Assembly (NCBI GenBank): GCA_934098665.1
Contig: CAKOOO010000003.1
Span: 28,125-92,124, forward strand
DNA from: an uncultured Bacilli bacterium
Lineage (GTDB): Bacteria; Bacillota_I; Bacilli_A; RF39; UBA660
DNA length: 64,000 bases
Reading direction: 5' to 3'
In this document: positions 10,859 through 60,963 of the stretch, piece by piece
Numbering within the stretch: position 1 is the stretch's first letter
How the letters are laid out: each line of letters opens with the position of its first letter
Notes under the pieces: model-generated
What the model saw: the letters and a program-made list of their open reading frames with translations, nothing else
Databases searched by the model: none
Told to the model about the DNA's origin: nothing
Program-made: the position numbers and the translations under genes

Positions 10859-10916
10859 GTTTATTTAATTAATTAGTATAATATATTTTACATATAAATA
10901 TTATGGAGGTAATAAA

Positions 10917-11309: not shown

Positions 11310-11314
11310 TATAA

Positions 11315-11346
11315 AAATATCAGCGTAAAAACTGATATTTTTTTTA
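11315..11346. terminator. Bidirectional intrinsic terminator between convergent genes
   Basis: Perfect 9-bp stem AAATATCAG (11315-11323) / CTGATATTT (11332-11340), 8-nt loop, T-run after it and A-run before it. Confidence 0.7.
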
Positions 11347-16499: not shown

Positions 16500-17039
16500 T
16501 TACTTTTTATCTAAATAATCATCATCAAGTTCATCTACATTTATGTTAAGTTCATCATTATTTTCCTCATCATAAACTTCTTCATAATCATCAAAATTAT
16601 CTTCAACTTGAATTTTTACGGTTGCATTACCTATTACCTCGATACCAAGTTCTTTTTCAATTTTTAGGGAAACTAAATCATCATTAATTTTGACATCAGT
16701 AACTGTAGGTTGTTTTAAAGCATTAACAATAATTTCACTATTACTATCAAGTTTACTGCTTTCCTTTATAGGAACATTTATAGCATCAGTATATGTAAAT
16801 TTTCTACTACATACAGCGGTTTTTGTATCATTATCATATGAATACCATACATTTACATCAAATGAGCCAGATACATTAACTTTACCTAAATTATTAACTC
16901 CCCTGAAAGAATGATTAATAACCCAGCATCCTAAAATAGTATTAGGTTTTTCATCACACTGAACTTCATAATTACTAACAATTTTCTTTTTACATTTACC
17001 GATTATTGCTTTTGTAACTATTTCTTTAAAGTTAGACAT
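16500..17039 (-). CDS. cotE: Spore coat morphogenetic protein CotE
   Basis: MSNFKEIVTKAIIGK...NTILGCWVINH...FDVNVWYSYDNDTKTAV closely parallels B. subtilis CotE as recalled (YREIITKAV...SILGGWIINH...YDINVWYSY..NTKTEV). Acidic C-terminal tail. Confidence 0.8.
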   Translation of the reverse strand: MSNFKEIVTKAIIGKCKKKIVSNYEVQCDEKPNTILGCWVINHSFRGVNNLGKVNVSGSFDVNVWYSYDNDTKTAVCSRKFTYTDAINVPIKESSKLDSNSEIIVNALKQPTVTDVKINDDLVSLKIEKELGIEVIGNATVKIQVEDNFDDYEEVYDEENNDELNINVDELDDDYLDKK

Positions 17040-17108: not shown

Positions 17109-17810
17109 CTATTTTAAAAAGTAATTAATTAATACTGGACCAATTATCAAAATAAGCATAAGTGGTAAGAAAAGAAGTACTGAAACAATTGATATTTTCA
17201 TAGGCATTTTGTTAATGCTTGATTTGATATCTAAAATTCTTTTATCTGTTAAATAATTAATTTGATTAGCAAGTGCACCTTCAATACTATTACCAAATTC
17301 ATTAGCTTCTATTATATTAAGTATTACATTACAAACACTTTTTGATGGAATCTTTTTCATTAAATCCTGAAGACCCTCAGTTAAAGATTTTCCATAAGAA
17401 ACTTCCTTAAGCATTTTTTTAAATTCACTACTTATTGAACTATCTATGCTATTACATGTAATTGTTAAACAAAGTTTTAAATTTTTTTCACTTTGAATAG
17501 TAAGTGATAATACTTCGAAAAAGAATATTGAATCACTTTCAAGCTTATTTGCCCTTTTTTTAATTTTAATATCTACGAAAATATATTCATAACAAATATA
17601 AAATAATGTAGCTATTAATGGTGCTAAAAAATATCCAGAATTAAATATAAATAATACAAAAATAAATATTAATACTGTAAATATAATTCTAAAAGTTAAA
17701 AATGCATTAATATTATTTTTACTATCATAAGATAAATACATAAATTTATTTTCTAAATTTTTTATAGAATTTGTAGAATAAAAACTTTTATAAAAATCAT
17801 TTACTTTCAT
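17109..17810 (-). CDS. Type II secretion system F-family membrane protein (TadC-like)
   Basis: Polytopic, 233 aa, cytoplasmic helical domain between TM segments. Last gene of the Tad-like operon, ATGA overlap with the upstream gene. Confidence 0.65.
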   Translation of the reverse strand: MKVNDFYKSFYSTNSIKNLENKFMYLSYDSKNNINAFLTFRIIFTVLIFIFVLFIFNSGYFLAPLIATLFYICYEYIFVDIKIKKRANKLESDSIFFFEVLSLTIQSEKNLKLCLTITCNSIDSSISSEFKKMLKEVSYGKSLTEGLQDLMKKIPSKSVCNVILNIIEANEFGNSIEGALANQINYLTDKRILDIKSSINKMPMKISIVSVLLFLPLMLILIIGPVLINYFLK

Positions 17811-18817
17811 ATTTTTTCCACCTTTGTTATCTTTTTAATGATTATTACATATAAAATATAAATTATAACCATAAGTAAATCTAATATAATGCCTATCTTT
17901 GTGGTTAATAGTGGTGCAAAATAGTTTGGATTTAAGGAATATATTACTAAAATAAATATAAATGGGATAAAAATAAGTATTCTATAAAGCATTTTACTTG
18001 AACTTGTAAGTGAATTAAGTTCATTTTTAATTTTTAATTTATCATAAAAATGTTTTTCTATCATATTAAATACAGATATTATATTACCACCAGTCTTATT
18101 TAAAAGTGTAAGTGATGATGTAATATATTTAATTTCTTCAACTTTAACTCTATCATAAAATCTTTCAAATACATTAGTAAGTTCAAGTCCATAATTTAAA
18201 TCTTTTGATATAATTTCAAACTCATCTTTTATAGGACTTGATAAAGAAGTTTTAACTATATTTATTGCTTCCCATATATTTTTTCCACTTTTAAAAGCAC
18301 TATTCATAATAACAATTGCCTGTAAAAGACCACTTTCTATTGTATTACGCTTTTGTTTATAAATAATTATTAAAATAATATCTATCATAAAAAATGAAGC
18401 AAAAGCAATTATTATAAGTAAAAACATATTTATATTTATTTTCTTTAAACATGACATTAATATATATAAAAATGAAATAAAAAACATATAAAGTATTTTT
18501 AGGGAAATATAATCAATAGATTTTAAATTATTTTTTTTATTATATATCAAATATTTATCAAGTCTTTTTGAATAATTTACTAAAATAACACTTTTTGATA
18601 TAAATTTAGATATTTTTTTGATAAGTTTTAAAAATACTAATGCAAATTTATCAATAACGCTTTTTGAGGCTAAATTATTATTTTTTATATAATATTTTTG
18701 GACTCTATTTTTAAATTTAATTGCAAAGAAAAAACGCACAAATAAAACCGCTAATAAAATAAATATTACGCTTAAAATTAAAATAGTTAAAAGCTGAATT
18801 ATTTGTAATTTTTCCAT
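17807..18817 (-). CDS. Type II secretion system F-family membrane protein (TadB-like)
   Basis: Polytopic, 336 aa, same architecture as above, follows the CpaF-like ATPase. Confidence 0.65.
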   Translation of the reverse strand: MEKLQIIQLLTILILSVIFILLAVLFVRFFFAIKFKNRVQKYYIKNNNLASKSVIDKFALVFLKLIKKISKFISKSVILVNYSKRLDKYLIYNKKNNLKSIDYISLKILYMFFISFLYILMSCLKKININMFLLIIIAFASFFMIDIILIIIYKQKRNTIESGLLQAIVIMNSAFKSGKNIWEAINIVKTSLSSPIKDEFEIISKDLNYGLELTNVFERFYDRVKVEEIKYITSSLTLLNKTGGNIISVFNMIEKHFYDKLKIKNELNSLTSSSKMLYRILIFIPFIFILVIYSLNPNYFAPLLTTKIGIILDLLMVIIYILYVIIIKKITKVEKI

Positions 18818-18829
18818 TTTTTCTCCTTT

Positions 18830-20155
18830 CTATTTTTTAAAAATATTTGCTATTTCGCTAAAACCATAACTTTCAAGTCTTTTTAAACATTTAGGCATTT
18901 TTTTAGTTTGATTAAATAAACCATTTACTTCACCAGTACTTGTTATACCCTCTTGAGTAAAAGTAAATATATCATTTAAAATTATTTCATCATTTTTAAA
19001 ATCTACAACCTCGGAAATGCCACTTACTTTTCTTTTACCATCAGAAAGTCTTTCAATATTTATAACAATATTTATAGCATTATATATATATTCTCTTACT
19101 GCTTTTACAGGAATATCAATATTAGCCATTAAAACCATTGTTTCAAGTCTATGAAGAGCATCTAAATTGCCATTAGCATGAAGTGTTGTTAAACTTCCCT
19201 CATGACCAGTATTCATCGCTTGAAGCATATCAAATGCTTCCCCACCTCTTACTTCACCAATTATAATTCTATCAGGTCTCATACGAAGAGAATTTCTAAC
19301 TAAATCTCTAATAGTTATTTCACCGGTTTTTTCATAGTTTGTAGTTTTTGTTTCAAGGGTTATTACATGTGGTTGTGTAAGATTTAACTCTGCGGCATCC
19401 TCAATAGTAATAATTCTTTCTTTTTCAGGAATAAAACCACTTAAAATATTTAAAAGAGTTGTTTTACCTGAACCTGTACCGCCACATACTAAAATATTAA
19501 GTTTTGATTTAACACAAGCCTCTAGGAAAGTTGCCATATCTGATGTAAGTGAACCAATTCTAACAAGTTCTGATGCATTTGAAATATTTGCTTTAAATTT
19601 TCTAATTGTTATAACTGGCCCTTTTGTTGAAAGCGGTGGAATAACTGCATTTACCCTTGAACCATCTTTAAGTCTAGAATCTACCATTGGACTTGAGGAG
19701 TCAATAGTTCTTCCCATAGGTTCAATAAGTTTTTGAATAGTTCTTATAATATGAGCATCGTTTATAAATGAAACAGTTTCATCTTTAATTAAATTACCAT
19801 CAATTTCAATATAAATTTCATTTGGTGAATTTACCATTATTTCCGTAATATTTTCATCTTTTAATAAATCAGTTAAAGGACCATAACCATTAATTTCATT
19901 TTCAATTAAATTATATAGATAACTTCTTTGAAGTGTCGTTAAATCAATTCCTTCGGTTGCTTTATCAATTTCAACGTTAATAAAACTATCTATATTATCA
20001 TCATTTTTTAAGTTTAAATCAATAATATTTTCAACAATTTTAGTTCTTAAACTATCAAGTAAATCTTTATTTTCAAAAACATCATAATCATTAAATATAT
20101 TTTCATCATTAATCTTTTCAAAAGAAAAAACATCTTTTAAACTACTCATTTTCAT
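18830..20155 (-). CDS. CpaF/TadA-family secretion ATPase (VirB11-like)
   Basis: ILVCGGTGSGKTTLLN Walker A, RPDRIIIGEVRGGEA Walker B/Asp box, TGHEGSLTTLHAN His box. Confidence 0.9.
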   Translation of the reverse strand: MKMSSLKDVFSFEKINDENIFNDYDVFENKDLLDSLRTKIVENIIDLNLKNDDNIDSFINVEIDKATEGIDLTTLQRSYLYNLIENEINGYGPLTDLLKDENITEIMVNSPNEIYIEIDGNLIKDETVSFINDAHIIRTIQKLIEPMGRTIDSSSPMVDSRLKDGSRVNAVIPPLSTKGPVITIRKFKANISNASELVRIGSLTSDMATFLEACVKSKLNILVCGGTGSGKTTLLNILSGFIPEKERIITIEDAAELNLTQPHVITLETKTTNYEKTGEITIRDLVRNSLRMRPDRIIIGEVRGGEAFDMLQAMNTGHEGSLTTLHANGNLDALHRLETMVLMANIDIPVKAVREYIYNAINIVINIERLSDGKRKVSGISEVVDFKNDEIILNDIFTFTQEGITSTGEVNGLFNQTKKMPKCLKRLESYGFSEIANIFKK

Positions 20156-20903
20156 CCTCCATATACTTTAATAAAGAGTCAAATACTTTATAAGTTTTTG
20201 GATAATTTTTAGAAAACTTTTTATCAAGTGTAATAATTTTCCCATCAAAAATATAACTATCAATATTTTTTATAAAAAACTTACTATCTAAATGATAATC
20301 TATATTATATCCAAGCATCTTTTTTATATCATATAAACTAAAATAATTTTTATATGGATTAATACTTTCATTTAATAAAATTTTATAGTTTTTCTTATCA
20401 GCACTATCAAATATAGTAAGTAAATTATGCATATTTTTAATATTAACTAAATCATTATTCATAATAAATAAGTTTAAATCTACACTATCAAGTACTTCAA
20501 CATTATTTTCATTTAAAACGCTCATTGTATCTATAATTAAATAATCATAATAAAAAATAGACTTTTCAATTATTAAATCAATAAGTTTGCTATTTACCTT
20601 CGAAGCACTTCTTGGATCTTTTGCACTAGGTAAAAAATAAATGTTATCATTATATTTAGTTACATAATTATCTAAACTTATACTTTTATTATCAACATAA
20701 TCACTAACAAAATTTAAAAGTGTCTTTGTATAATCTTTATTTAAATAAAGTCCTATACTTCCAAAATATAAATCATAATCCACAATTAAAACTTTTTTTC
20801 CTTGCATAGCAAAAAATCCCGCGATATTTATTGCAGTTAAACTTTTTCCAGTCCCTCCTTTAGAGGAAAATAAACAAATACTTTTTCCCTTACCTTTAAT
20901 CAT
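20142..20903 (-). CDS. ParA/MinD-like ATPase (CpaE/TadZ-like, no receiver domain)
   Basis: Deviant Walker A SSKGGTGKS, VLIVDYD; sits immediately upstream of the CpaF-like ATPase. Confidence 0.75.
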   Translation of the reverse strand: MIKGKGKSICLFSSKGGTGKSLTAINIAGFFAMQGKKVLIVDYDLYFGSIGLYLNKDYTKTLLNFVSDYVDNKSISLDNYVTKYNDNIYFLPSAKDPRSASKVNSKLIDLIIEKSIFYYDYLIIDTMSVLNENNVEVLDSVDLNLFIMNNDLVNIKNMHNLLTIFDSADKKNYKILLNESINPYKNYFSLYDIKKMLGYNIDYHLDSKFFIKNIDSYIFDGKIITLDKKFSKNYPKTYKVFDSLLKYMEDENE

Positions 20904-20904
20904 A

Positions 20905-21270
20905 CTAATCCTTTTGATAAACTATCTTATCATCCTTTAAAACCCCTTTGATACTAACATCAATTATTCTTTCTTTTCTATTTAGAATTTTTTTCATTAA
21001 ACTATTAATATGAGCTTTAAATTTTAAACCAAAGCCATCATCATTTGAAATAGTTAAATCACTTATCTTGATATCATTATCATTAAACATCTTTATTATA
21101 CCATTTTTATCTTCACTTGCAAAGTTTTTTGCAATAACTGTTTTCGTAAATGAATATATTTTTCTTTTTTGGTATGCTATATAAATATTATCCATAACTA
21201 AACTTAATAAAATTACAAGTACTGGTAATATAATTATAAATAGTACTAACGCTTGGCCATTTTTATTCAT
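20905..21270 (-). CDS. TadE/TadG-like pseudopilin-type protein
   Basis: MNKNGQALVLFIIILPVLVILL: a short basic N-terminus, then GQA, then a hydrophobic helix (TadE-like N-terminal domain pattern). Confidence 0.6.
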   Translation of the reverse strand: MNKNGQALVLFIIILPVLVILLSLVMDNIYIAYQKRKIYSFTKTVIAKNFASEDKNGIIKMFNDNDIKISDLTISNDDGFGLKFKAHINSLMKKILNRKERIIDVSIKGVLKDDKIVYQKD

Positions 21271-21560
21271 AATTTTCTTTCCACACTTACTTTATAATTA
21301 TTTCCTAAAAATGGAGTTAACAAAGGTGAATATATTATAATTTTCTTACTTACTGTATAATTATTTTCGTTTTTTATTATATCTACATCATTATTTTCAT
21401 AATCATCATTAATTATAACTTCTTCGATAACACTTTCAAGCATACTTTTTTCATTATATATTCTTACATAATCAAAAACAGATACCATAATCATAACAAA
21501 TACTGGTAATATAATAATAAATTCAATTAATGCTTGACCCTTTTTATTAATCTTTTTCAT
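21267..21560 (-). CDS. TadE-like pseudopilin-type protein
   Basis: MKKINKKGQALIEFIIILPVFVMIMV matches the TadE N-terminal motif (GQA-hEF-h-LP). First gene of the operon. Confidence 0.6.
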   Translation of the reverse strand: MKKINKKGQALIEFIIILPVFVMIMVSVFDYVRIYNEKSMLESVIEEVIINDDYENNDVDIIKNENNYTVSKKIIIYSPLLTPFLGNNYKVSVERKL

Positions 21561-21620
21561 ATATTAAGTATAAAATATCTTTGATAATTTTTCTAGTACT
21601 AATTATATATTTACATGTAC

Positions 21621-21649
21621 TTTACATTTTAGAAAATATATGCTATAAT
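21621..21649 (+). promoter_or_regulatory. Sigma-A-type promoter for 21672..21869
   Basis: TTTACA (21621-21626), 17-nt spacer, TATAAT (21644-21649). Confidence 0.6.
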
Positions 21650-21671
21650 TATACTGTTTAAGGGGGATATT

Positions 21672-21869
21672 ATGAAAAAAGGAAATAATGTTTTAATTAT
21701 ATTTATTTTATGTATACTAATTTGCTTAATATCTACATCATATTTTTTCTTAAATAAAAACGTTACTAAAGAAAAAGTATATTATTTAGAAAAAATTAAT
21801 GAGAAAAAAATTAAAACAATTAACATGAATAAAGAATTTGTTCAAAATAAAAAAATTGCTAAAAATTAA
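21672..21869 (+). CDS. Small single-pass membrane protein, unknown function
   Basis: Strong RBS AAGGGGGA, own promoter and terminator. 65 aa with one TM segment (VLIIFILCILICLISTSYFF) and a Lys-rich tail. Confidence 0.55.
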   Translation: MKKGNNVLIIFILCILICLISTSYFFLNKNVTKEKVYYLEKINEKKIKTINMNKEFVQNKKIAKN

Positions 21870-21885
21870 TTTAGCAGTTTTTTTA
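21855..21885. terminator. Bidirectional terminator between convergent small genes
   Basis: Stem TGCTAAA (21857-21863) / TTTAGCA (21870-21876), then a T-run on the plus strand and an A-run upstream. Confidence 0.55.
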
Positions 21886-21894
21886 TTGCAATAA

Positions 21895-22188
21895 TTATTT
21901 TTTTAAGTTATTTTCCTTTAAAGTTAGAAAAAGTTCATTTAATTCATTATAAACTTTATTATAAACATCCTCACGTTTAACTATAACACTTGCATTTAAT
22001 AAAGAATTTGCATAAGAAATAAGCTGTTCATTATCAAGTAGTTTATTATATGCGAGCATTTTTAATAAACTCACATATTCTATAAAGCTTTTTTCACTTA
22101 ATCTATTTTCTTTGACATATGCTTGCATATTTCTAAATGTTTTTTTAGATTTAACTAAAATGTCTAACAAATATAATGGATACTGCAC
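21895..22188 (-). CDS. Hypothetical helical protein (97 aa), GTG start
   Basis: The track ORF (to 22242) runs through its own promoter and RBS. The minus strand reads TTGACA-17-TATAAT, then AAGGGGGAAG, then GTG at 22188 (VQYPLYLLDILV...). Confidence 0.55.
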   Translation of the reverse strand: MQYPLYLLDILVKSKKTFRNMQAYVKENRLSEKSFIEYVSLLKMLAYNKLLDNEQLISYANSLLNASVIVKREDVYNKVYNELNELFLTLKENNLKK

Positions 22189-22213
22189 TATAACTTCCCC
22201 CTTAACTAAAATA

Positions 22214-22242
22214 ATTATAGCATATATTAATATAACTGTCAA
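22214..22242 (-). promoter_or_regulatory. Perfect-consensus sigma-A promoter for 21895..22188
   Basis: Minus strand: TTGACA (22242..22237), 17-nt spacer, TATAAT (22219..22214). Confidence 0.75.
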
Positions 22243-24121: not shown

Positions 24122-25543
24122 ATGGACGAAGGTAAAGCAAAACTTATAAAAGAAATAATTACAAGATTTATTACTCATCAAGATGAAAAAATTTTGGAAC
24201 TTGAAAATATTAAAGTAAAACTTGATTTATATGAAGAATTAATAAGGCTTTTAGATAATAATATAGATATTGTAATTGAAAATAAAATTATTATAGAAAT
24301 ACTTTTAGACACAATTTATAATTTAGATACATATAATATGTTATTTATAAATAAAGTTGTTTCAAATGATGAAAAAGAAATTCACAAATTACTTAATACT
24401 TTTAAAGAGCAATATGAACAGCTTAAGTTAAAAGAAAGTCTTCTTACAAATGAAATAAAAAATTATAAAGCACTATCACATGATGCAAATGTTTTTTTAG
24501 TAGCTCTTAAAAATAAAATACCTGTAAACAGAATTTGCACTGAAAATGTTAAAAGAATACTTTTAATTATGCAAAGTGAAATGTTTTTAGAAAATAAAGA
24601 TATGACCCTACTTATTAATGAACTTAACTTTTATAGTCAAAAAATTTCTATGGTAAGTGAAAAAGATAAATTATTTATTTATAATGCTTATTTAAAAATA
24701 CCTACAATAGTAAATATGGGTTATGAAGTTATCAAAGATGTTGAAGTCGAACCTAATAGAAAAGTGCTTCTTGATAATGTTGCTAAAGCGGTATATAAAG
24801 AACTTGGTAATGTAAAACCAAATGATATCGAACATTTTTTTATATATTATCTTGAAGAAGATTACGATATCGAAGAAGTACAGTATATCACTGGAAAAAC
24901 AATAAACCTTATGCAAAATGATTTAGTTATTTACTATGAGTTTGCTATAGAAAATGCTGAAAATAAAGAAAATGAAGCAAGAAAATCAATTACTGATGAA
25001 TACTTTAGTTTATTTAATAAATATGTAAAACTACGCGCTTATTATGATAAAATTGAAGAAATGCTTGAATACAAAGAAGTTCCTGAAACTGAAGAATTAC
25101 CTTTAAAAGTTGATGTATATCAAAATGAACTATACTTTGCTTCCTCGAAGGCTAATCCATTAAAATCAAAAATTCTTGCTGATTTAAAAGATATTCCCGA
25201 AGAGTATTATGAAAATATTTATAGCCTTTTAGAGGAATTTAAAAAAGGCACTTTACCTAAAGGAGCTATTAAAAAACTACAAAATAATGGTAAACTTGAG
25301 GATGTATATGAAATAAAGGGATTTCAAATAAGAATAATATTTAAACAAATACAAAATAATTCATATTGCGTTTTAGGGGCTTTTATTAAGAAAGATAACA
25401 ATGATATAAAAAGTTATAATAATATTGGCCGAAGAAAAATGAATATTCCACAAAATTTAATTTATGCAAAAATGGTATCATCTCAAATGCAAAAAGAATT
25501 ATATGATGTTTTATTAAGTAAAAAAAGAACAAGTACACTATAA
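24122..25543 (+). CDS. Hypothetical 473-aa protein with a C-terminal HigB/Gp49-like (RelE-fold) segment
   Basis: The N-terminal ~370 aa is helical with no motif I recognise. The C-terminal LEDVYEIKGFQIRIIFKQIQNNSYCVLGAFIKKDNNDIKSY follows the Gp49/HigB pattern (hyEh+..g.+IhF....n.hhLhgF.KK). Confidence 0.4.
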   Translation: MDEGKAKLIKEIITRFITHQDEKILELENIKVKLDLYEELIRLLDNNIDIVIENKIIIEILLDTIYNLDTYNMLFINKVVSNDEKEIHKLLNTFKEQYEQLKLKESLLTNEIKNYKALSHDANVFLVALKNKIPVNRICTENVKRILLIMQSEMFLENKDMTLLINELNFYSQKISMVSEKDKLFIYNAYLKIPTIVNMGYEVIKDVEVEPNRKVLLDNVAKAVYKELGNVKPNDIEHFFIYYLEEDYDIEEVQYITGKTINLMQNDLVIYYEFAIENAENKENEARKSITDEYFSLFNKYVKLRAYYDKIEEMLEYKEVPETEELPLKVDVYQNELYFASSKANPLKSKILADLKDIPEEYYENIYSLLEEFKKGTLPKGAIKKLQNNGKLEDVYEIKGFQIRIIFKQIQNNSYCVLGAFIKKDNNDIKSYNNIGRRKMNIPQNLIYAKMVSSQMQKELYDVLLSKKRTSTL

Positions 25544-29074: not shown

Positions 29075-30811
29075 TTAACTTCCCACTACATATGGATTAT
29101 TCCATGTACCATTGCCAGAAAGATTAGCATCTTTTGATATTGAGATAACTGGTCGAACGCCTAAAGCCGTTCTATCCGGGGTCGAATCAGAAATTTTTCC
29201 CGATGAAGTTGTATAAAAAGTGTACCCATAATCTTCGTAAAAACCATAAGGTGACATAGACCAATAGTCTTGATTTGTATATAAATAATAATTTGTATTA
29301 TCACTTTTGGGATTTCCACCTGCCATTAACAATTCATCGGCTGTTATTAAACCAACAGGATATGTTAATGCACCATTTCCAAACTCACTTTCATCATTTA
29401 AAATTATTTTATTTACCGTAAACATATCACTTTTTTCAGAACATATTAAACTAGGTGCAGTACCTTTACTCAAATAACCCAAATTCAATCTATTAGCTGG
29501 ATAATAGTAACCAAATTCTGCATAGTTGTATTTTTCCCATAAACCAGCATCCCTATCATTACAATAAATTGCATCTACCACTATTGATGAATCTGTACTT
29601 ACTAATGAAGTTGATGAATACCAACTATCCAAAGCCTGTTTAATTTTACTATTATTAACAGTATTTCCATCTATAGTACAGTTTTCATTTTGTGAGTCAC
29701 ATTTTCCATAACCATATTGTTGATCCGATATGTATTGATATCCAACACAAGCCGTTGTTTCGCAAGAATTATTATATACTGTAGTTGTTGCTTGCGTACC
29801 ATCTCCTGTCATAATAACTTTTTGATTTTCGATTGGTGCGGTTGTTCCTGTATATATCAGTCTTACACTACCATCGCCATTTATTCTAATTATTCGCCAA
29901 TACATATCATTATTTGAATTATCTTTACCAAATTTTACCCAGTTATTATCTACGGCACCTCGAAAATAATATGATGTTCCAAAATTATCTTCAGATAAAT
30001 AAAGTCCTTCATTTAATGTTGCGATATTATCAAAATTAGGCTTTTCTGCATTTAAATTATTATTTGATAGCAATTTTTTTCCTATAGTGCCTGGGATATC
30101 CAAGGCAATTATATCACAATTTTTATTTGATACATATATTTTACCAGTAAATCCTTTTTCAGAAAGTTGACCTTGAAATACATCTAAATTATAATATTTT
30201 CCTGTAATTGTCCATTTTTGTTCAGTTTCTTTTGTAGCACTATTATTATTGATTATTGCATTACTTACAAGGACTCTTTTTGCTCCAACTGAATTGGTAG
30301 TATCTTTTGCTGTCCATGAACTATCATAATTAAAGTTTTTTTCTTCATTATAGTTATTTGTTCCTGTACTTGGTCCTGATACTTGCATGGTTATTTCTTT
30401 AGTAACAGTTGTATTAGTTTCCTCATTCTTAGATACATAAGTAACATCATCACCATATATATACGAATTATAATCATACTCATATACTATATCATAAGTA
30501 CATGAAACTAATTGATTATCATCACCTGATATTAAGTTTACTGAAAGTGTAGCTGTATTTTCTGCAATAGCATTTACAGTACTATTATTAGAACGTTCCA
30601 TTGCTGCACCACTAACTTGTATATTTAGTTGGGTTGCATTTGATGTAAAAACAACATTTCCTCCAGATAATGCTGTCACATTTACTGCAACATTATTGGT
30701 AAGACCAGCACTCATATCACTAAAATATGCAAATGCTGCCGCTATAACAATAACAAAAAGCATCATTGCTGATACAAAACTTATTACTTTAACTTTCTTT
30801 TTATTTTCCAT
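29075..30811 (-). CDS. Secreted/surface protein, long-form paralogue A (578 aa)
   Basis: N-terminal anchor/signal MENKKKVKVISFVSAMMLFVIVIAAAFAYFSD. Shared motifs YYFRGAVDNNWV, YWRIIRINGDGSVRLIYTGTTAP, YPVGLITADE, YYLYT, YWSMSP, GVRPVISIS, GTWNNPY. Confidence 0.8.
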   Translation of the reverse strand: MENKKKVKVISFVSAMMLFVIVIAAAFAYFSDMSAGLTNNVAVNVTALSGGNVVFTSNATQLNIQVSGAAMERSNNSTVNAIAENTATLSVNLISGDDNQLVSCTYDIVYEYDYNSYIYGDDVTYVSKNEETNTTVTKEITMQVSGPSTGTNNYNEEKNFNYDSSWTAKDTTNSVGAKRVLVSNAIINNNSATKETEQKWTITGKYYNLDVFQGQLSEKGFTGKIYVSNKNCDIIALDIPGTIGKKLLSNNNLNAEKPNFDNIATLNEGLYLSEDNFGTSYYFRGAVDNNWVKFGKDNSNNDMYWRIIRINGDGSVRLIYTGTTAPIENQKVIMTGDGTQATTTVYNNSCETTACVGYQYISDQQYGYGKCDSQNENCTIDGNTVNNSKIKQALDSWYSSTSLVSTDSSIVVDAIYCNDRDAGLWEKYNYAEFGYYYPANRLNLGYLSKGTAPSLICSEKSDMFTVNKIILNDESEFGNGALTYPVGLITADELLMAGGNPKSDNTNYYLYTNQDYWSMSPYGFYEDYGYTFYTTSSGKISDSTPDRTALGVRPVISISKDANLSGNGTWNNPYVVGS

Positions 30812-30897
30812 AAATCTTCACCCTTTCACAAAATACGAATAATTAAAATTTTTTATAAATTTAAATCCTAATTTTTGCCCATAAATATGCACGTCTA

Positions 30898-31033
30898 TTT
30901 TCTTAAATTAGATACTTTTAAAAAAACTCTACCTTGATTTTACATACTTTACACTAAAATAATACACTATTTTTTATAATTTTTAAAGTCTTTTTAACGA
31001 TTTTACGTTTTCATTTTTTTTAAATGTATCTAC
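30898..31033. promoter_or_regulatory. Switch copy 1: promoter cassette between inverted sites, promoter facing gene A; sites partly eroded
   Basis: Left site: TTTTCTTAAA-TTAGATACT-TTTAAAAAAA (30898-30926). Right site: TTTTTTTAAA-TGTATCTAC (31015-31033). IR 30909-30926 / 31015-31032 matches 17 of 18. Minus-strand promoter: TTTAAA (30987..30982), 17-nt spacer, TATTAT (30964..30959). Confidence 0.6.
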
Positions 31034-31111
31034 ACGAAAAATGTAAACACTGGGGAAAATAGAAAATTCATGTAATTTTTTTAAATTTAAACTTTTTTTA
31101 TTTTTTATGTA

Positions 31112-31141
31112 AAATAAAAAAAAGAGCAAGATATACTTGCT
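31112..31141 (-). terminator. Terminator of paralogue B
   Basis: Stem AGCAAG (31125-31130) / CTTGCT (31136-31141), with the minus-strand U-run corresponding to the A-run at 31112-31123. Confidence 0.55.
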
Positions 31142-32910
31142 TAACTTAAATCCACTGTATACGGATTATTCCATGTGCCATCGCCAGATAATTTTGCCTC
31201 AGAGGATAGAGAAATTACACTACGGACGCCATCATTGACACTAGGAAACACACGATTACTAGACAGATAACCCGAATAATTTACAATGAAAACATTACTA
31301 TAATTAGCATAGAAATTGTAAGGCGACCCAGACCAATAACTTTGCCCTGTATATAAGTAATATGAACTGTTGCTAGTTTTATATCCTCCTGCCATATTTA
31401 TCTCATCAGCAGTTATTAAACCTACTGGATAAGAAAGTGTTCCGTTTGCTACACTATATTTATCTAATTCATTTTCGCATTTTAAACTTGGAGTCCAACT
31501 ATTATTATTTCCATATGTTCTTCCATTACTGCCATAATATGTTGCTCTGTTTGATATCCAACTACTTATTTCACCATATATACCTGTTTCACTTATTGAT
31601 GCTGTCCTATCATAACAAAATGGAGTATCTACTACTAATTTTGATGTTGCTGCATCCGCATATAGCGTTGTTATTTTATACCAATTTTCAAGTGTTGTCT
31701 TTATTATACTATCATTTGCTAGACCATGTTGTTTTCCTATCTCATATTTATATCCGACATATTCAGCTTTATTCATTTCATTATTAAATTTAATTGCATT
31801 TATTTGTGTACCTGTTCCAGTCATAACGCTCTTTTGACTTTCTGTTGGTGCTGTTGTTCCTGTATACAGGAGTCTTATTGACCCATCACCATTAATTCTT
31901 ACTATTCGCCAGTAAATTTTATCTCCATTTGATGCTATTTTAGTGCATGAATTTCCAGTATCAATTGTTGATATAGTGCCATAATTACAATCATATATAT
32001 CATTTGCATATTCACCATATTGTACCCAGTTATTATCTACTGCTCCTCTAAAATAGTAAGATAAGCCTTGGTCATCCATTGTCATATACATTCCTTCATT
32101 TGTTGTTGCACTATTTGTAAATACTGGAGTACCTTTTGATTTTATTACATCAATACCACCATTTTTTGCTAGTATTGTATTTCCAGCGGTACCAATATTG
32201 TTTGTTCCTATTGCACAATTTTTATTTGATACATATATTTTGCCTGTAAAGGCTTGATTAGAAAGCTGTGTTTGAAATATATTTAGGTTATAGTATTTAC
32301 CAGTAAATGTCCAATTTTGTGTTGTTTGCTCTGTTGAACTCATATTTGATATACCTGCATTACTTACAAGTACTTTTTTTGCTCCCACTAAATTTGTTGT
32401 ATCTTTTGCTGTCCATGAACTATCATAATTAAAGTTTTTTTCTTCATTATAGTTATTTGTGCCAATACTTGGTCCCGATACTTGCATTGTTATCTCTTTT
32501 GTTACGTTTGCACCCGTATCTCCATCTTTTGTTACATATGTTGTGCCATCGCCATATACATTTGAATTATAATCATATTCATATACTATATCATAAGTAC
32601 ATTTAACTAACTGATTATCGTCACCTGATATTAAATTAACTGATAAAGTTGCAGTATTTTCTGCAATAGCTGTTTCATTATTTGCAAATGATGAGTCCAT
32701 ACTACTTGAAGGCACGTTTATACTTAACTGGGTTGCATTGGATGAAAATACTGAGTCACCACCCTCTAAAGCGGTTACATTAACTGCTACATTATTTGCA
32801 AGACCTGCACTCATATTACTAAAATAAGCAAATGCTGCCGCTACCACAATTACAAATAGCATCATTGCTGATACAAAACTTATTACTTTAACTTTCTTTT
32901 TATTTTCCAT
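31141..32910 (-). CDS. Secreted/surface protein, long-form paralogue B (589 aa)
   Basis: The first ~230 aa are near-identical to paralogue A (MENKKKVKVISFVSAMMLFVIVVAAAFAYFSN...). The middle is diverged. The C-terminal motifs are shared: YYFRGAVDNNWV, YWRIVRINGDGSIRLLYTGTTAP, YPVGLITADE, GVRSVISLS, GTWNNPY. Confidence 0.8.
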   Translation of the reverse strand: MENKKKVKVISFVSAMMLFVIVVAAAFAYFSNMSAGLANNVAVNVTALEGGDSVFSSNATQLSINVPSSSMDSSFANNETAIAENTATLSVNLISGDDNQLVKCTYDIVYEYDYNSNVYGDGTTYVTKDGDTGANVTKEITMQVSGPSIGTNNYNEEKNFNYDSSWTAKDTTNLVGAKKVLVSNAGISNMSSTEQTTQNWTFTGKYYNLNIFQTQLSNQAFTGKIYVSNKNCAIGTNNIGTAGNTILAKNGGIDVIKSKGTPVFTNSATTNEGMYMTMDDQGLSYYFRGAVDNNWVQYGEYANDIYDCNYGTISTIDTGNSCTKIASNGDKIYWRIVRINGDGSIRLLYTGTTAPTESQKSVMTGTGTQINAIKFNNEMNKAEYVGYKYEIGKQHGLANDSIIKTTLENWYKITTLYADAATSKLVVDTPFCYDRTASISETGIYGEISSWISNRATYYGSNGRTYGNNNSWTPSLKCENELDKYSVANGTLSYPVGLITADEINMAGGYKTSNSSYYLYTGQSYWSGSPYNFYANYSNVFIVNYSGYLSSNRVFPSVNDGVRSVISLSSEAKLSGDGTWNNPYTVDLS

Positions 32911-32997
32911 AACAATTCACCCTTTCAAAAAATACGAACATTTAAAATTTTTTTAGAAAATTAAATTTTAAATTTTCCGCATAAGTACGCCATATAA

Positions 32998-33144
32998 TTT
33001 TCTTAAATTAGATACTTTTAAGAAAACTCTACCTTGATTTTACGTACTTTACACTAAAATAATACACCTTTTTTTATAATTTTTAAAGCATTTTTAACGA
33101 TTTTACGCTTTCGTATTTTCTTAAAAGTATCTACTAAAGGAAAA
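32998..33144. promoter_or_regulatory. Switch copy 2: promoter cassette between inverted recombinase-type sites, promoter facing gene B
   Basis: Left site: TTTTCTTAAA-TTAGATACT-TTTAAGAAAA (32998-33026). Right site: TTTTCTTAAA-AGTATCTAC-TAAAGGAAAA (33116-33144). Perfect 18-bp IR 33009-33026 / 33116-33133 around an 89-bp core. Minus-strand promoter: TTTAAA (33087..33082), 17-nt spacer, TATTAT (33064..33059). Confidence 0.75.
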
Positions 33145-33252
33145 TACGAACAAGGTAAACACTGGGAAAAATAGGAAATTTATGTACTTTTTTTATTTAT
33201 AAATTTTTTATTTTTTATGTAAAGTTTATGTAAAATAAAAAAGATTAATGAG

Positions 33253-41444: not shown

Positions 41445-42533
41445 TTACATCCCTATTCTATAAGGATCTACTTGCGTACCTGTTCCACTTACTACATATA
41501 CATTTGGTTTTAGATAAAGGACTGGTCTAGTTGCATAACTCACATTTGCAACATTACTAGATAAGCATCCATTAGAAATCCATAATTGGATGGTATCACT
41601 ATAAGCACCAATTAACCACTCATTTTCACACATGAAAAGCCAATTTTTTTGTGTGTACTGTTCAATGGTACCCCCATAACCAATTATGCCTGAATATCCT
41701 TCAACTGCATATCCAAAGTCGCTTGCGTACATTAAGCCTATTTTAGATAATGAAGATGAATATCTACTTATTTCCAAATCATATTGGTCATCAGCTGTAT
41801 GAAATGCTTTATCACCAAAGCCAATATAATAATAAACATTTTCAACCATTTTGCCATAATTACTATCTTCATCAATACCAATTAAAGAGTAATTACACAT
41901 ACCTATTGCGTCAGTTCCTGCATAACAATAATCATCACATGATGATGTTTTTCCTAAATAACATTTATTTAATAAATTTTGAATATTAGTATTTAACCAA
42001 GTAAATTGATTTGTAGTACTAAACATATTTTTATCATATAGGAAACTACCAATAATATCATTTCTTATTAGTTTTACTCTATTTTCAGTTGATGCACATC
42101 CACTTGTTAAACATACTGGTACGTTTCCGATTATTCTCCATAGTTCATCATTAAACCATACATAATTATCTGGATTTTTCCCTTGATATCTTATTCCATG
42201 TGTTGTACTTGCACCTTTACTATCAACTACATCACTTAAATTACTAGCATTTGAATTAAATGAAATATCACATGTTACTGTTCCTTTTATTTTTGTTATT
42301 TCTAGTTTCCATGTTTTAGGGTTCCATACTCCTTTTCCATTTTCACAATTAACAGTTACATTATATTTACCACTTGCTGGAAAAGATGTTGCACTATTTC
42401 CATCAACAGTTAATGCAATAATACTTCCATTGTAATTAAATGTTTTAATGCTTTTACTACTTATAACTATAAGTAAAGTAACACTTATTATTATAAATAT
42501 ACTACATACTATTATTTTTTTATTATATTTCAT
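41445..42533 (-). CDS. Secreted/surface protein, short-form paralogue D (362 aa)
   Basis: N-terminal TM/signal. STTHGIRYQGKNPDNYVWFNDELWRIIGNVPVCLTSGCASTENRVKLIRNDI is near-identical to paralogue C. C-terminal ATRPVLYLKPNVYVVSGTGTQVDPY. Starts 27 nt after the stop of C (operon). Confidence 0.75.
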   Translation of the reverse strand: MKYNKKIIVCSIFIIISVTLLIVISSKSIKTFNYNGSIIALTVDGNSATSFPASGKYNVTVNCENGKGVWNPKTWKLEITKIKGTVTCDISFNSNASNLSDVVDSKGASTTHGIRYQGKNPDNYVWFNDELWRIIGNVPVCLTSGCASTENRVKLIRNDIIGSFLYDKNMFSTTNQFTWLNTNIQNLLNKCYLGKTSSCDDYCYAGTDAIGMCNYSLIGIDEDSNYGKMVENVYYYIGFGDKAFHTADDQYDLEISRYSSSLSKIGLMYASDFGYAVEGYSGIIGYGGTIEQYTQKNWLFMCENEWLIGAYSDTIQLWISNGCLSSNVANVSYATRPVLYLKPNVYVVSGTGTQVDPYRIGM

Positions 42534-42560
42534 TTAATTTCCTTCTTTCTATTAATTTAA

Positions 42561-43874
42561 TTAAAGATTTAAAATGTAAGGATTAGTTTGAGAACCATCA
42601 CCACTTGTAACGTAAACTTGCGACTTTAGAAAAATTGTTGGTCTTACAAAATAACCATCGAAAGATTTATTTCCATATATCCAGCCATAACTTATAAAAA
42701 ATGGCCAAGAGGAAGAAATAGTCATAGTCCACTCCATACCCGTTTTATATAGCCAATTTTGATTACAGTATCCTTGCGGATTATTAATACGACCTAGTCC
42801 ACTACTAAATCCTTTAAACGCATAGCCAAAATCACTTACATACATTATGCCAACTTTTCTCGCTACAGTATCTATACTAGATTTTTCATAATTATAATGT
42901 TCGTCAGCAGTATGTGCTGAATCATCACCAACCATAGCATTTGGATTACTTTCTATTCCAGCATAGTAAAAAACATCTTCTATCATGTTTCCGTAAAAAT
43001 CTGAAGCATCTATACCAATAAGAGAATAATCACAATTACCCACAATGCTTGTACCTTTTATATAACAATAATTATCACAACTACTTTTTTTACCTAAATA
43101 ACAACCATTTAATAATTTTTGAATATTACTATCACTCCATGTTGTACTAGAATCACTAAATTTATAGGCACCTAAAATATCATTTCTTATTAGTTTTACT
43201 CTATTTTCAGTTGATGAACATCCACTTGTTAAACATACTGGTATGTTTCCAATTATTCTCCATAGCTCATCATTATACCAAACATAGTTATTTGGGTCTG
43301 TTCCTTGATATCTTATTCCATGTGTTGTACTTGTTCCATTATTATTTACTATAGTTGTAAGAAGCTCACTACTTGATGGTGTTTTTTGGGTAAATTCTAT
43401 ATCACATTTTACAAAATCATTCCAATTTGATACTTCTATACCATTTAATTTATTATTCCAAATAGTACTATTTGTTCCTTTACAATTTGTAACACTTTTT
43501 GTATAACCTGATAATAAATATGAAGGAGTTTCTATATTCATTTTTATGTCAGAAATTACTTCATAATACATATAAACTGTACATCTATCAGAGCCTAATG
43601 TTTGATATGATAATTTATTTCCTACTATATCAACTGTTCCACCATTTTCACAAAATGTTTTATCTGTATCTATATGATAATTTGTTAAATCACTTGGAAT
43701 AGAATTTGCATTTGTATAATCAGCTTCTCCATCACCTTTTATCATAATAGCATAAGATTTTTTGATAATTAATTTATCATTATTAAGTGTATTTTTCTTA
43801 TCATTATAGATAATTATGGTAATTAAAAATGCTACTAACAAAAATACGAACAACATTATTTTTTTTCTTTTCAT
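42561..43874 (-). CDS. Secreted/surface protein, short-form paralogue C (437 aa)
   Basis: N-terminal TM/signal MKRKKIMLFVFLLVAFLITIIIY. STTHGIRYQGTDPNNYVWYNDELWRIIGNIPVCLTSGCSSTENRVKLIRNDI. C-terminal FVRPTIFLKSQVYVTSGDGSQTNPY. Confidence 0.75.
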   Translation of the reverse strand: MKRKKIMLFVFLLVAFLITIIIYNDKKNTLNNDKLIIKKSYAIMIKGDGEADYTNANSIPSDLTNYHIDTDKTFCENGGTVDIVGNKLSYQTLGSDRCTVYMYYEVISDIKMNIETPSYLLSGYTKSVTNCKGTNSTIWNNKLNGIEVSNWNDFVKCDIEFTQKTPSSSELLTTIVNNNGTSTTHGIRYQGTDPNNYVWYNDELWRIIGNIPVCLTSGCSSTENRVKLIRNDILGAYKFSDSSTTWSDSNIQKLLNGCYLGKKSSCDNYCYIKGTSIVGNCDYSLIGIDASDFYGNMIEDVFYYAGIESNPNAMVGDDSAHTADEHYNYEKSSIDTVARKVGIMYVSDFGYAFKGFSSGLGRINNPQGYCNQNWLYKTGMEWTMTISSSWPFFISYGWIYGNKSFDGYFVRPTIFLKSQVYVTSGDGSQTNPYILNL

Positions 43875-43909: not shown

Positions 43910-44056
43910 TTTTCTTATATTAGGTAGATTTAAGAAAATTACATAACGTAAAATCGTTATTTTGACTTTAAAAATTATAAAAAATAATGTATAATTTAAT
44001 AGTAAGGTACGTAAATACGAGGTAGAATTTTCTTAAATCTACCTACTTTAGGAAAA
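43910..44056. promoter_or_regulatory. Switch copy 3: same cassette as copies 1-2 but with the core reverse-complemented (promoter facing away from the C-D operon)
   Basis: Left site: TTTTCTTATA-TTAGGTAGA-TTTAAGAAAA (43910-43938). Right site: TTTTCTTAAA-TCTACCTAC-TTTAGGAAAA (44028-44056). Perfect 20-bp IR 43921-43940 / 44026-44045 around an 85-bp core. The promoter is on the plus strand: TTTAAA (43967-43972), 17-nt spacer, TATAAT (43990-43995). Confidence 0.8.
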
Positions 44057-45990: not shown

Positions 45991-46701
45991 CTACTTACTT
46001 TCTTTTTCACCATATTTTTTAAATATATAATTTTTACTTGAACTATCTAAATATAAAATTCCTTTATCATTTACTACTGCATAAATTTCTTGATATTTAT
46101 TTAACTTTTCAATATTAATTAAATTAACATATACTGTATTACCATCTTTCATACGTAGTAAAAATCTTTCATCATCAATAACTTTATCTTCATATTTATC
46201 TATAGAATATTCTATTTCTGAAATCATTTGATAATTACTTTCATCTACTTTAGATAAACTTTTTATTAAATTATCATAAATATTTTTTGGTACATAATTT
46301 ACAAGTGTTGGATAACCTAAATATTCACCACTACTATTCATTTCACTACCATCAGATAAAACAAGTTTTTTAGTAAGAACATTATAAAATAAAATTCTAT
46401 TTTCTGTTATATCAATATCTATAGTTCCATTCAAATACCTTTTTATTTTAACATTTTTAACAAGAGGAATATTTTTAATATTTTTAGATACTTTATTAAT
46501 ACTTATTTTGAATATTGAATCATTATAATTAATATCAGCATTTTTTATAATTTCTTCTTCATTTAAAAGATTATTACCATGAATATTAATATTTTTTATA
46601 GGAAGTTTAATAAAATAATAAACTATCATAGCAAGTAAGTATATAAATAAAATTAAAAAAATTATTCCTGTTATACGAACTTTTTTTTTAGTTTTTTTCA
46701 T
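45991..46701 (-). CDS. divIB: Cell division protein DivIB/FtsQ (POTRA domain)
   Basis: N-terminal TM, then IKNINIHGNNLLNEEEII (POTRA). Lies downstream of murG-murB. Confidence 0.75.
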   Translation of the reverse strand: MKKTKKKVRITGIIFLILFIYLLAMIVYYFIKLPIKNINIHGNNLLNEEEIIKNADINYNDSIFKISINKVSKNIKNIPLVKNVKIKRYLNGTIDIDITENRILFYNVLTKKLVLSDGSEMNSSGEYLGYPTLVNYVPKNIYDNLIKSLSKVDESNYQMISEIEYSIDKYEDKVIDDERFLLRMKDGNTVYVNLINIEKLNKYQEIYAVVNDKGILYLDSSSKNYIFKKYGEKESK

Positions 46702-51458: not shown

Positions 51459-52094
51459 TTAACATTCACGTACATTATCAATAATAAGTGATGCATTATA
51501 AGTTTTATTTGCATTTATATCTTGATCTATATTTTTAAAATAATTAAATGTTATCATAGCTTTATAGCTTATAACTTTTGTAACTCTTTTCGTAGTAGAA
51601 ATACTATGTTCATAATTATCAATATTTAAATTAACTGGTATACTTAATTTTCCAGTTTTTTGAGTTATATCTTCACTATCAAGTACTAAATGATACTGTT
51701 CATTATCAGTTTTTGAATATACATTTAAAGAAAGTTCTGCATTTGGATAATTACTATATTCAAATATTTTTTCTTGTGGTAAATTTATACTTACATCATA
51801 ACAATATTTTGCACTTTTTTTAGTGGTATCAAGTATAACATCAATTATGGTTTCTCCACTTACAGAGTGACCTACACTTTTAATAAAATTATAATCTGTA
51901 GCTTTAATAACCGCATCATTTGTCTTTTTCATTTGAAGTGTATCAACACCTTTAGTTTCAACATTTATATTAAAATTTCCATAAGTAAAATCTTTAGTAA
52001 TAAAATAAGCATAAGTTCCTACAGTTATAATCATTACAAAAATAAAAATAAATAATATTAAATAAATTTGGGTTCTTCTTTTATCTTTATCCAT
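51459..52094 (-). CDS. Secreted protein carrying only the N-terminal AYF-type module of the long paralogues
   Basis: MDKDKRRTQIYLILFIFIFVMIITVGTYAYFITKDFTYGNFNINVETKG parallels ...VIAAAFAYFSDMSAGLTNNVAVNVTALSG of paralogues A and B (TM, then G/A-x-(Y/F)-A-Y-F, then N-h-N-V-x-T). Confidence 0.55.
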   Translation of the reverse strand: MDKDKRRTQIYLILFIFIFVMIITVGTYAYFITKDFTYGNFNINVETKGVDTLQMKKTNDAVIKATDYNFIKSVGHSVSGETIIDVILDTTKKSAKYCYDVSINLPQEKIFEYSNYPNAELSLNVYSKTDNEQYHLVLDSEDITQKTGKLSIPVNLNIDNYEHSISTTKRVTKVISYKAMITFNYFKNIDQDINANKTYNASLIIDNVREC

Positions 52095-60609: not shown

Positions 60610-60709
60610 TTAGAAAAGGCTCATAAGGGCGGTCATAGGTTCCTTGAGCCACCATTGCCAATAAAAAAAGTAGCCCTCACAATGTGAAAACTACTATTAC
60701 TTTTTTTAT

Positions 60710-60734
60710 TGGTGCAGGTAAAGGGACTTGAACC
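60710..60734 (-). tRNA. Displaced tRNA 3'-end fragment (T-loop to CCA), putative prophage attachment-site half
   Basis: The minus strand reads GGTTCAAGTCCCTTTACCTGCACCA: the T-loop box GGTTCAAGTCC, the 3' T-stem, a 7-nt acceptor strand, a discriminator A and CCA. No matching 5' half (GCAGGTA...) within the next 80 nt. Confidence 0.45.
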
Positions 60735-60763
60735 TACTAATAAAATAATCAGGAAAGGAAATT

Positions 60764-60949: not shown

Positions 60950-60963
60950 GGAGGAAAATTATT

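Follow-up and report, generated by a model that had tools for sequence, protein, structure and literature searches.

Tandem paralogs behind invertible DNA switches: a phase-variable locus of probable surface proteins in an uncultured gut Bacilli bacterium

The DNA considered here is a 64,000-nucleotide stretch from an uncultured Bacilli bacterium (GenBank assembly GCA_934098665.1, contig CAKOOO010000003.1, positions 28,125 to 92,124), hereafter the window, and positions follow its own numbering unless a comparison contig is named. It contains two neighbouring open reading frames (ORFs) on the minus strand, gene A (29075..30811, 578 aa) and its paralog gene B (31141..32910, 589 aa), each preceded by a short element flanked by inverted repeats (IRs). 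The element upstream of gene B occurs in both orientations in independent assemblies, which is direct evidence that this is a locus of phase-variable surface proteins, and the family to which they belong is uncharacterised. The reading favoured here, to which we give a probability of about 0.7, is that A and B are independently phase-variable members of a huge exported, probably surface-binding protein family in a walled, low-GC, spore-forming gut Firmicute.

The two upstream elements share the same geometry, with 18-nt arms around 88–89 nt at positions -221..-97 from the ATG of both genes. In switch A, the gene-proximal arm (30909..30926, TAGATACTTTTAAAAAAA) and the gene-distal arm (31015..31032) enclose an 88-nt core (30927..31014), and in switch B, the gene-proximal arm (33009..33026, TAGATACTTTTAAGAAAA, with an imperfect extension to 32997) and the gene-distal arm (33116..33133, with an imperfect extension to 33145) enclose an invertible core of 89 nt (33027..33115); the arms carry no strand. 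The arm pattern TAGRTASWTTTAAGAAAA has six matches in the window, which form three inverted pairs, while 0.44 matches would be expected by chance. Contigs for comparison were traced through proteins exactly identical to A and B, and three of them (L001, L002 and L004), which derive from three human-gut samples (ERZ27287474, ERZ4559618 and ERZ28614471) and different assemblers, are 99.6–100% identical to the window over 13–15 kb. In all three, the B core 33027–33115 is present as its exact reverse complement between identical flanks. Since this exact inversion recurs in three independent assemblies, the element upstream of B is a genuine DNA inversion switch, and the initial annotation, made from the letters of the window, was right in describing the upstream region as phase-switched. 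A scan of JGI metagenomes yielded no match to the inverted junction of A or B. When the window and the switch regions were searched with Rfam, none of the switches gave a match to a riboswitch (including the c-di-GMP riboswitch, even though a GGDEF gene adjoins the locus) or to any other RNA family. A separate motif, TTCGTATTTTC, occurs immediately beyond the distal arm (33140–33160), in inverted form where the core ends on one side (33100–33115), and a third time close to the ribosome-binding sites of both genes (32925–32940 for B); it has equivalents at switch A and the third switch described below, is conserved across paralogs, and may be an accessory recombinase site or a regulator site.

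In the orientation seen in the window, each core aims a promoter-like sequence at its gene, in which a -35-like TTTAAA or TTGAAA is separated by 17 nt from a -10-like box, TATTAT or TTAAAT, in places extended by TG. The site in switch A reads TTTAAA-17-TATTAT at 30987..30959, and that of switch B occupies 33087..33059. The cores of relatives keep the arrangement TTGAAA-17-TGn-TTAAAT, and the reference cores can be aligned with one another, about 14 of them being oriented like B in L001 and about 4 like A and B in the window. Because the promoter-like site aims at the gene, and because most phase-variable paralogs are expected to be silent, the window orientation is taken as the probable ON state. 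By this argument from sequence, the window would have both genes ON, with its third switch OFF; in the populations behind L001, L002 and L004, A would be ON and B OFF.

A and B are tandem mosaic paralogs, with 56% protein identity over 616 columns (BLASTP, E=0). The duplicated units measure 2066 and 2112 nt with their upstream intergenic regions (as judged from the repeat families D1–D7, with spacings of 2069–2112, and from a MAFFT profile of A against B), and the upstream part accounts for about 330 nt. This agrees well with the initial annotation, which had placed both ORFs at the correct coordinates (on what proves to be the minus strand) and had proposed a tandem duplication of about 2.07 kb including some 330 bp of upstream sequence. 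In the same profile, DNA identity is 85–95% in the upstream switch, at the 5' gene ends and around 30290–30400, and drops to 40–60%, with indels, across most of the 3' half. At the protein level, identity is 97% for residues 1–30, 74% for residues 31–236, 35% for the linker and 42% for the C-terminal module (269–578); hence the earlier statement that residues 1 to about 230 are nearly identical holds for the signal but is overstated for the N-domain. The diverged, indel-bearing region followed by shared C-terminal blocks was described accurately, and the four blocks (YWRI.RINGDGS.RL.YTGTTAP, YPVGLITADE, YYLYT and GTWNNPY) are all present in both proteins and invariant or nearly so across 70 diverse relatives. 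Similarly, the identical DNA that had been pointed out around 30330–30400 and 32400–32470 corresponds to the longest identical tract, of 62 nt (30300–30361 = 32399–32460), and a further tract of 55 nt is found at 30759–30813 = 32858–32912. As the genome has a GC content of 25% and strongly biased codon use, the 62-nt tract is compatible with gene conversion and is no proof of it.

The turnover seen in a close strain supports recombinational exchange better than these tracts within the window. On the syntenic contig of that strain (L089), the flanks of which are 97.6–99% identical, the position of B is occupied by a gene whose N-domain is 96% and whose head is 66% identical to B, with one patch of the head closer to A. 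Gene A of the same strain is a 5'-truncated remnant (L089 11708–12540), owing to a deletion with one end about 11 nt within the switch core and the other near codon 353, and this deletion may reflect an aberrant recombinase event. In the window, a terminator-like hairpin with a T-run (31125..31141, minus strand) lies immediately 3' of the stop of B, which makes A and B separate transcription units.

The locus is not the only one of its kind in the window. A third switch (43921..44045) has arms at 43921–43938 and 44028–44045 (TAGGTAGATTTAAGAAAA) around an 89-nt core that is homologous to the A and B cores and lies in the opposite orientation. Downstream of it, a second tandem pair (41445..43874, minus strand) consists of an unannotated ORF of 437 aa (42561–43874) directly followed by its paralog of 362 aa (41445–42533). 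The second pair has no Pfam match, its C-terminal module is related to that of A and B (hhalign probability 61%, E 8e-5, 226 columns), and the whole pair is missing from the syntenic strain L089. Furthermore, when 79 loci of reference genomes were searched for IRs matching at 16 or more of 18 positions, with a loop of 60–140 nt and no more than 300 nt upstream of a gene, such repeats preceded 23 of 76 family genes. The corresponding figures were 8 of 308 for other genes and 1 of 76 for shuffled sequences (Fisher p=7e-12), and several of the eight IR-bearing other genes are relatives with a different N-terminus. The geometry of the family switches is conserved, with the distal arm at about -171 to -185 and the end of the proximal arm at about -35 to -46. 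Two metagenome-assembled genomes (MAGs), L033 and L035, carry related switches in opposite orientations; they were considered as another exact inversion and set aside, as their cores are mutually inverted but the loci are not strict orthologs.

The protein architecture was approached with an AlphaFold model of A built on a diverse alignment of 70 sequences (pLDDT 81.6, pTM 0.72). The model contains a helix at residues 3–36, a beta-sandwich at 42–236 and a C-terminal module at 269–578 with a pLDDT mostly above 90, and together with Foldseek comparisons it divides the protein into a predicted signal or anchor (1–28), a beta-sandwich N-domain (about 40–236), a linker and a DUF6273-like C-terminal module (269–578). 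The best structural match of the N-domain is the beta-sandwich of Bd1399 (Foldseek probability 1.00), a secreted, disulfide-locked and elongated fold (PMC10792529). The C-terminal module matches the Thomasclavelia ramosa IgA peptidase (IgAse) structure 9qa6 with a Foldseek probability of 1.00 (E 6e-4, 325 columns, 18% identity), and the N-terminal domain of this peptidase (9qa6 residues 31–322) is a C-type-lectin-like DUF6273 domain (PMC12402451, PMC12237041). In addition, DUF6273 proteins of gut phages take ranks 1, 3 and 12 among the Foldseek matches to the viral library BFVD, with a TMt of 0.56 for one of 206 aa. Among homologs, P0015 scores 32.1 bits against PF19789, above the cut-off of 23.5, over model positions 126–171 of 172 only, and a dozen homologs carry a precomputed PF19789 match. 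The model-based comparisons thus place the C-terminal module, at the level of the fold, in the DUF6273/C-type-lectin-like group. The likeness to DUF6273 that the initial annotation had pointed out is therefore upheld at that level, A and B themselves lying below the PF19789 threshold, and the Pfam, NCBIfam and structure comparisons leave the two proteins outside every sequence model, with a Bd1399-like N-domain and a DUF6273-type C-terminal module. Two pairs of cysteines, C104/C232 and C417/C457, show no or almost no variation in the family, which fits an extracytoplasmic location.

A clue to the function of the module comes from a relative on contig L032, a 728-aa family member with a SYAFF N-terminus and the same C-terminal module motifs as A and B. 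Its 3' end recurs as a 127-nt intergenic repeat, and 20 of the 23 mismatches between the copies fall on adenines of the intergenic template repeat (TR), which is the signature of a diversity-generating retroelement (DGR). This element spans L032 9655–12106, with the variable region (VR) at 9655–9781, the TR at 10007–10133 and a reverse transcriptase gene (RT, with an RVT_1 domain) at 10616–12106, followed by a Xer-like recombinase gene. The variable region corresponds to residues 667–704 and lies exactly between YW.GSP and G.RP. In the 70-member alignment, the columns of the codons open to mutation by the DGR are the ones that are hypervariable in the family, with a mean entropy of 3.18 bits as compared with 1.22 bits for fixed codons (Mann-Whitney p=7e-7), and this coincidence marks the loop as a likely binding surface. 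In gene A, the hypervariable loop comprises residues 522–550 (29162..29248, minus strand), between YWSMSP and GVRP, and the equivalent segment of gene B, located by alignment to A and to the DGR columns, comprises residues 531–560 (31231..31320, minus strand). By analogy with C-type-lectin folds targeted by DGRs elsewhere, the loop between YW.SP and G.RP is likely to be the ligand-contacting surface of the whole family. No RT was found in the window, and the DGR belongs to the relative on L032; in A and B, the sources of variation are paralogy, recombination and ON/OFF switching.

At the opposite end of the proteins, long and short forms of the family share, with hardly any exception, the motif [STA]-[FY]-A-[YF]-F, which follows a basic start and an uncharged stretch of 22–23 residues and obeys the -3/-1 rule for signal peptidase. 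The short forms consist of the N-domain alone and number 220 stand-alone representatives, one of which lies in the window (51459..52094, minus strand, 211 aa, with a TYAYF motif and without a switch; E=6e-13 in an hmmsearch with profile A4), where it sits among housekeeping genes. On L071 and L086, four tandem short forms stand directly upstream of one long form, as part of an operon-like row (L071 1993–7617, and its equivalent in L086) that also includes a 375-aa transmembrane (TM) protein with weak LysM and CarboxypepD_reg matches. About 3 kb downstream (L071 10270–12139), a type IV prepilin (KGLSLIEMLIV) is found together with a fusion of a pilin-like N-terminus and the lectin-like module.

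These N-terminal features have invited two other interpretations of the locus, the older of which is contained in the initial annotation. If A and B were of the TasA/camelysin class, a SipW-type peptidase would cleave them between AFA and YFSD, and they would form donor-strand fibres with the short forms as major subunits and the long forms as adhesin-bearing ones. The N-terminal motif AAAFAYFSD is nearly identical to the camelysin motif GGGTFAYFSD, and this likeness is genuine, if no more than a lead; moreover, polymerisation would explain how the proteins are retained if the signal is cleaved, since no other anchor is visible, and the abundance of short forms and their tandem arrangement before a long form would suit a fibre. 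The family models tell a different story, as neither A nor B matches TIGR04088 or Peptidase_M73 (PF12389), even at E<=10 when the N-termini are searched in isolation, and the best relatives stay below the curated cut-offs, with 16.6 and 14.9 bits for two short forms against a TIGR04088 cut-off of 19, and an E of 0.006 for 2 of 70 long forms against Peptidase_M73. None of 73 N-domains (71 stand-alone short forms, A and B) matches Peptidase_M73, no TasA structure is among the top 50 PDB matches listed by Foldseek for the model of A, and the N-domain has the Bd1399-like fold described above. Neither the window nor the examined loci contained a sipW-type peptidase in a regular-expression scan for the signal-peptidase motif, which is a weak test. 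Membership of A and B in the TasA/camelysin class is therefore not supported, so that of the earlier proposal the resemblance of the motif stands and the class assignment is wrong or at least unproven, and a fibre of this class is quite unlikely. According to the second interpretation, the N-terminal helix would be a pilin-type assembly signal, and a type IV or Tad-like pilus would contain the long and short forms as its subunits or tip adhesins. A candidate is at hand in the window, where a Tad/Flp-type cluster (17109–22242, minus strand) encodes two TadB/C-like proteins, a TadA/CpaF protein, a TadZ-like ATPase, a TadE-like protein and small ORFs, and a similar pilus cluster with TM-anchored 'pilin-like' proteins of 143–236 aa is reported to be conserved in the uncultured TANB77 clade (PMC11680825). 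The N-domain profile also matches the archaeal type IV pilins 8tib, 8fjs, 6w8x and 6nav, and the pilin-like fusion beside a classical prepilin on L071 joins the C-terminal module itself to such a signal. The profile matches, however, are weak (E 0.03–0.1), confined to the first ~90 positions and due mainly to the hydrophobic helix; a class III signal is absent from A, B and the short forms, which have no G/A before the hydrophobic stretch, no E+5 and no Flp G/XXXXEY; Pilin_N is matched by just 1 of 73 N-domains (E 0.008); and A and B lie outside the Tad cluster, which leaves a pilus very unlikely. A broader fibre model deserves mention beside the reading of A and B as switched, exported binding proteins. 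In this model, short and long forms would be subunits of an undescribed surface fibre of uncultured gut Firmicutes, assembled through the conserved ...FA|YF... N-terminus, whether by SipW-like cleavage and donor-strand exchange or after the fashion of pilins. Heads at its tip or sides would be swapped by dozens of per-gene invertons across the genome under one Xer-like recombinase, and in some lineages a DGR would diversify the same loop further. We consider it unlikely, and it is kept alive by the existence of short forms on their own and by the row of four before the long form in L071 and L086; if true, it would mean that one adhesin scaffold is subject to programmed variation at three levels.

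Two further explanations concern the origin of the locus and the reality of the switch. Invertible host-range switches occur in phages, and the genes could on this ground be taken for prophage-derived receptor-binding or tail-fibre proteins, all the more as DUF6273 is typical of receptor-binding proteins and DGR targets of gut phages (PMC10743442). Such an origin is extremely unlikely in view of the neighbourhood, which consists of ligA on one side and a GGDEF/BrkB operon on the other without phage genes nearby, and in view of the N-terminal export signals, the failure of PHROGs to match, the scattering of paralogs over chromosomal contigs of one MAG, and the fact that the inverted part is an intergenic promoter region rather than gene segments. 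Inverted repeats can also fold as RNA, and metagenome assemblers can mis-join repeats, so that the element might be an RNA hairpin or attenuator, or its inverted copies might be assembly artefacts. This last idea is hardly credible, as the inversion is exact and has identical flanks in three assemblies, which differ in sample and in assembler, and as Rfam finds no family at the switches. Furthermore, the whole element, at 125 bp, would fit within one of the 141-mers from which the k141 contig was built (as judged from the contig name), and reads must therefore span this orientation.

The enzyme that would invert the cores is most probably encoded elsewhere in the genome. Among about 1 Mb of examined sequence, jackhmmer detected three mutually orthologous Xer-like tyrosine recombinases (51–74% identity, each with PF00589 and a SAM-like domain), at L075 1302–2261, L080 10253–11122 and L032 12085–12966, and no other tyrosine recombinase or serine invertase. 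Each of the three genes comes immediately after family genes that are read in the same direction, and they represent three MAGs and two different syntenic contexts. The neighbourhoods of family genes on long contigs contained no recombinase, and L088 had an IS3-type transposase there. The best candidate invertase is a Xer-like enzyme that acts in trans, as in mycoplasmas; with three cases, in sequence chosen for family neighbourhoods, the linkage is no more than suggestive.

Several observations weigh against the favoured reading of A and B as independently switched, exported binding proteins. Switch A has the same orientation in all four assemblies (the window, L001, L002 and L004), and the third switch likewise has one orientation in two assemblies. 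The assignment of the ON orientation rests on matches to a consensus promoter, and a TATAAT-like box is present on the other strand of the core as well. No recombinase gene was detected in the 64-kb window by Pfam searches of nearly all ORFs of at least 90 aa, by precomputed annotation or by jackhmmer with FimB, FimE and PinE seeds. As for the proteins, A and B pass no Pfam or NCBIfam model, have no match to PF19789 at E<=1 and none in PHROGs, and searches of PDB sequences with A alone and with the 70-sequence family profile returned nothing relevant. The TM-scores of the IgAse match are low (TMq 0.25, rmsd 10.6 Å), so that the fold assignment rests on the Foldseek probability and on the agreement among different kinds of evidence. 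Neither A nor B has an evident motif for anchoring (LPXTG, lipobox, CWB2 or SLH), which leaves their retention at the surface unexplained if the signal is cleaved.

The family to which A and B belong is very large. More than 5,600 relatives of A were found at E<=1e-3, almost all of them gut-metagenomic and unnamed, as the initial annotation had anticipated in knowing of no characterised member, and the genomes that carry them have labels such as 'Mycoplasma sp. CAG:472', 'uncultured Bacilli' and Anaeroplasmataceae. One MAG supplies about 20 of the 80 best loci, which puts the number of family loci in a single small genome at 20 or more, and its paralogs are dispersed over many chromosomal contigs among housekeeping genes. 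No published description of the family or its switches was found, which is weak evidence of novelty, and a large inverton survey makes no mention of these lineages (PMC11602134). The window contains the sporulation genes cotE (16500–17039) and yqfD (56662–57786) as well as the peptidoglycan genes divIB-murB-murG (45991–48655), which together indicate a walled spore-former rather than a mycoplasma and bear out the earlier suggestion of a spore-forming host.

The favoured reading can be put together into the following mechanism. Each gene would form its own transcription unit behind an element of about 125 bp, in which two 18-nt IRs enclose a core of 88–89 nt with promoter-like sequence. A recombinase encoded outside the window, probably of the tyrosine type and acting in trans on many sites, would flip the core, so that the promoter faces the gene in the ON state and faces away from it in the OFF state. 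The N-terminal hydrophobic signal would export the protein and then either be removed by cleavage after x-[FY]-A or stay in place to anchor it in the membrane. The elongated beta-sandwich would hold out the DUF6273-type, C-type-lectin-like head, the YW.SP/G.RP loop of which would contact the ligand. A clonal population could thus vary the heads that it displays by promoter inversion, paralog divergence and mosaic recombination, and in some relatives a retroelement would mutate the loop in addition. The likely purposes would be a change of adhesion specificity, escape from antibody and phage, or both.

The remaining features of the window are mentioned for completeness. The 158-aa gene immediately downstream of A was considered as a conserved partner and rejected, as its synteny is limited to close strains; it has nothing significant in Pfam, NCBIfam or PHROGs. 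Within the pcrA/uvrD helicase gene, the segment 36412–36509 (minus strand) gives a match at the Rfam gathering level to RF03531, the C. difficile sRNA n00280. A 473-aa ORF at 24122–25543 (plus strand), which runs opposite to its neighbours and belongs to no assigned family, with a weak Gp49-like match as its one lead, is conserved in L089. The region 60700–63800 (plus strand) contains small ORFs without Pfam match, among them one for a TM protein of 344 aa and one for a 91-aa protein resembling an inovirus major coat protein, and coincides with a change in the sign of the GC skew; it may be a filamentous-phage-like element.

The lineage in question, possibly RF39- or TANB77-like, is uncultured and common in human guts, and its interaction with the host is almost unstudied. 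The family appears to be its main variable surface repertoire, and would, if the favoured reading is true, represent antigenic or adhesive variation of the mycoplasma style in a walled spore-former. As the switches are short and defined by sequence, and as both states are present in public metagenomes, ON/OFF ratios could be measured in thousands of existing samples and related to host IgA, phage load or disease. In addition, the comparison with the DGR marks a specificity loop as a target for ligand and structural work on DUF6273, a domain without an assigned function.

Among known protein classes, DUF6273 proteins share with A and B the fold-level match and the motifs W-R-I/V-I, YW..SP and RP-V, and the likeness extends to the 'tentaclin' receptor-binding DUF6273 proteins of phages, since the loop of the relative on L032 is a DGR variable region as well (PMC10743442). 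In contrast to these, A and B score below the Pfam threshold, their module has about 310 aa as compared with a model of 172 positions, of which the last ~46 align in homologs, and the module is joined to another N-terminal domain and regulated by an inverton instead of being mutated by a DGR. TasA and camelysin resemble A and B in the basic start, the ~21–23 uncharged residues and the x-F-A|Y-F-S-D motif, and the short forms, at about 210–260 aa, are TasA-sized; they differ in that A and B do not match their models, have a Bd1399-like N-domain and no sipW nearby, and carry a lectin-like head without counterpart in TasA.

With respect to regulation, one account of Mycoplasma penetrans describes 38 mpl genes of the P35 family, each with its own invertible promoter (PMC10502178, citing Horino 2003). 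Here, as there, the genes of a large family of variable, in our case probably surface-exposed, proteins each have a short IR-flanked element, which here is promoter-like and would likewise give independent ON/OFF states and combinatorial repertoires. The mpl inversions are reportedly the work of a Xer-like tyrosine recombinase (Horino, in 2009, is said to have identified it), and in the present case the candidate invertase, linked to genes of the family, is likewise Xer-like. Unlike A and B, the mpl proteins are lipoproteins of a wall-less mollicute and unrelated in sequence, whereas the host of A and B has peptidoglycan and sporulation genes and its two proteins have no lipobox and a C-type-lectin-like head. 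Similarly, the RecV switches of C. difficile (cwpV, flgB, cmrRST and pdcB) and the Mpi regulon of B. fragilis rely, in these gut bacteria, on one recombinase, the gene of which lies elsewhere on the chromosome, that inverts many short IR-flanked regulatory elements upstream of genes for surface structures (PMC7446863, PMC9286219). Several of the C. difficile switches act after transcription initiation, in a terminator- or Rho-dependent manner, and each serves a different kind of gene, whereas the nearly identical switches of A and B were duplicated along with members of a single protein family; in addition, the IR sequences are unrelated to those of RecV and Mpi. To conclude, the regulatory logic of the locus is nearest to that of the mpl/P35 family of M. 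penetrans, with the RecV and Mpi regulons also close, and the protein itself is nearest to DUF6273.

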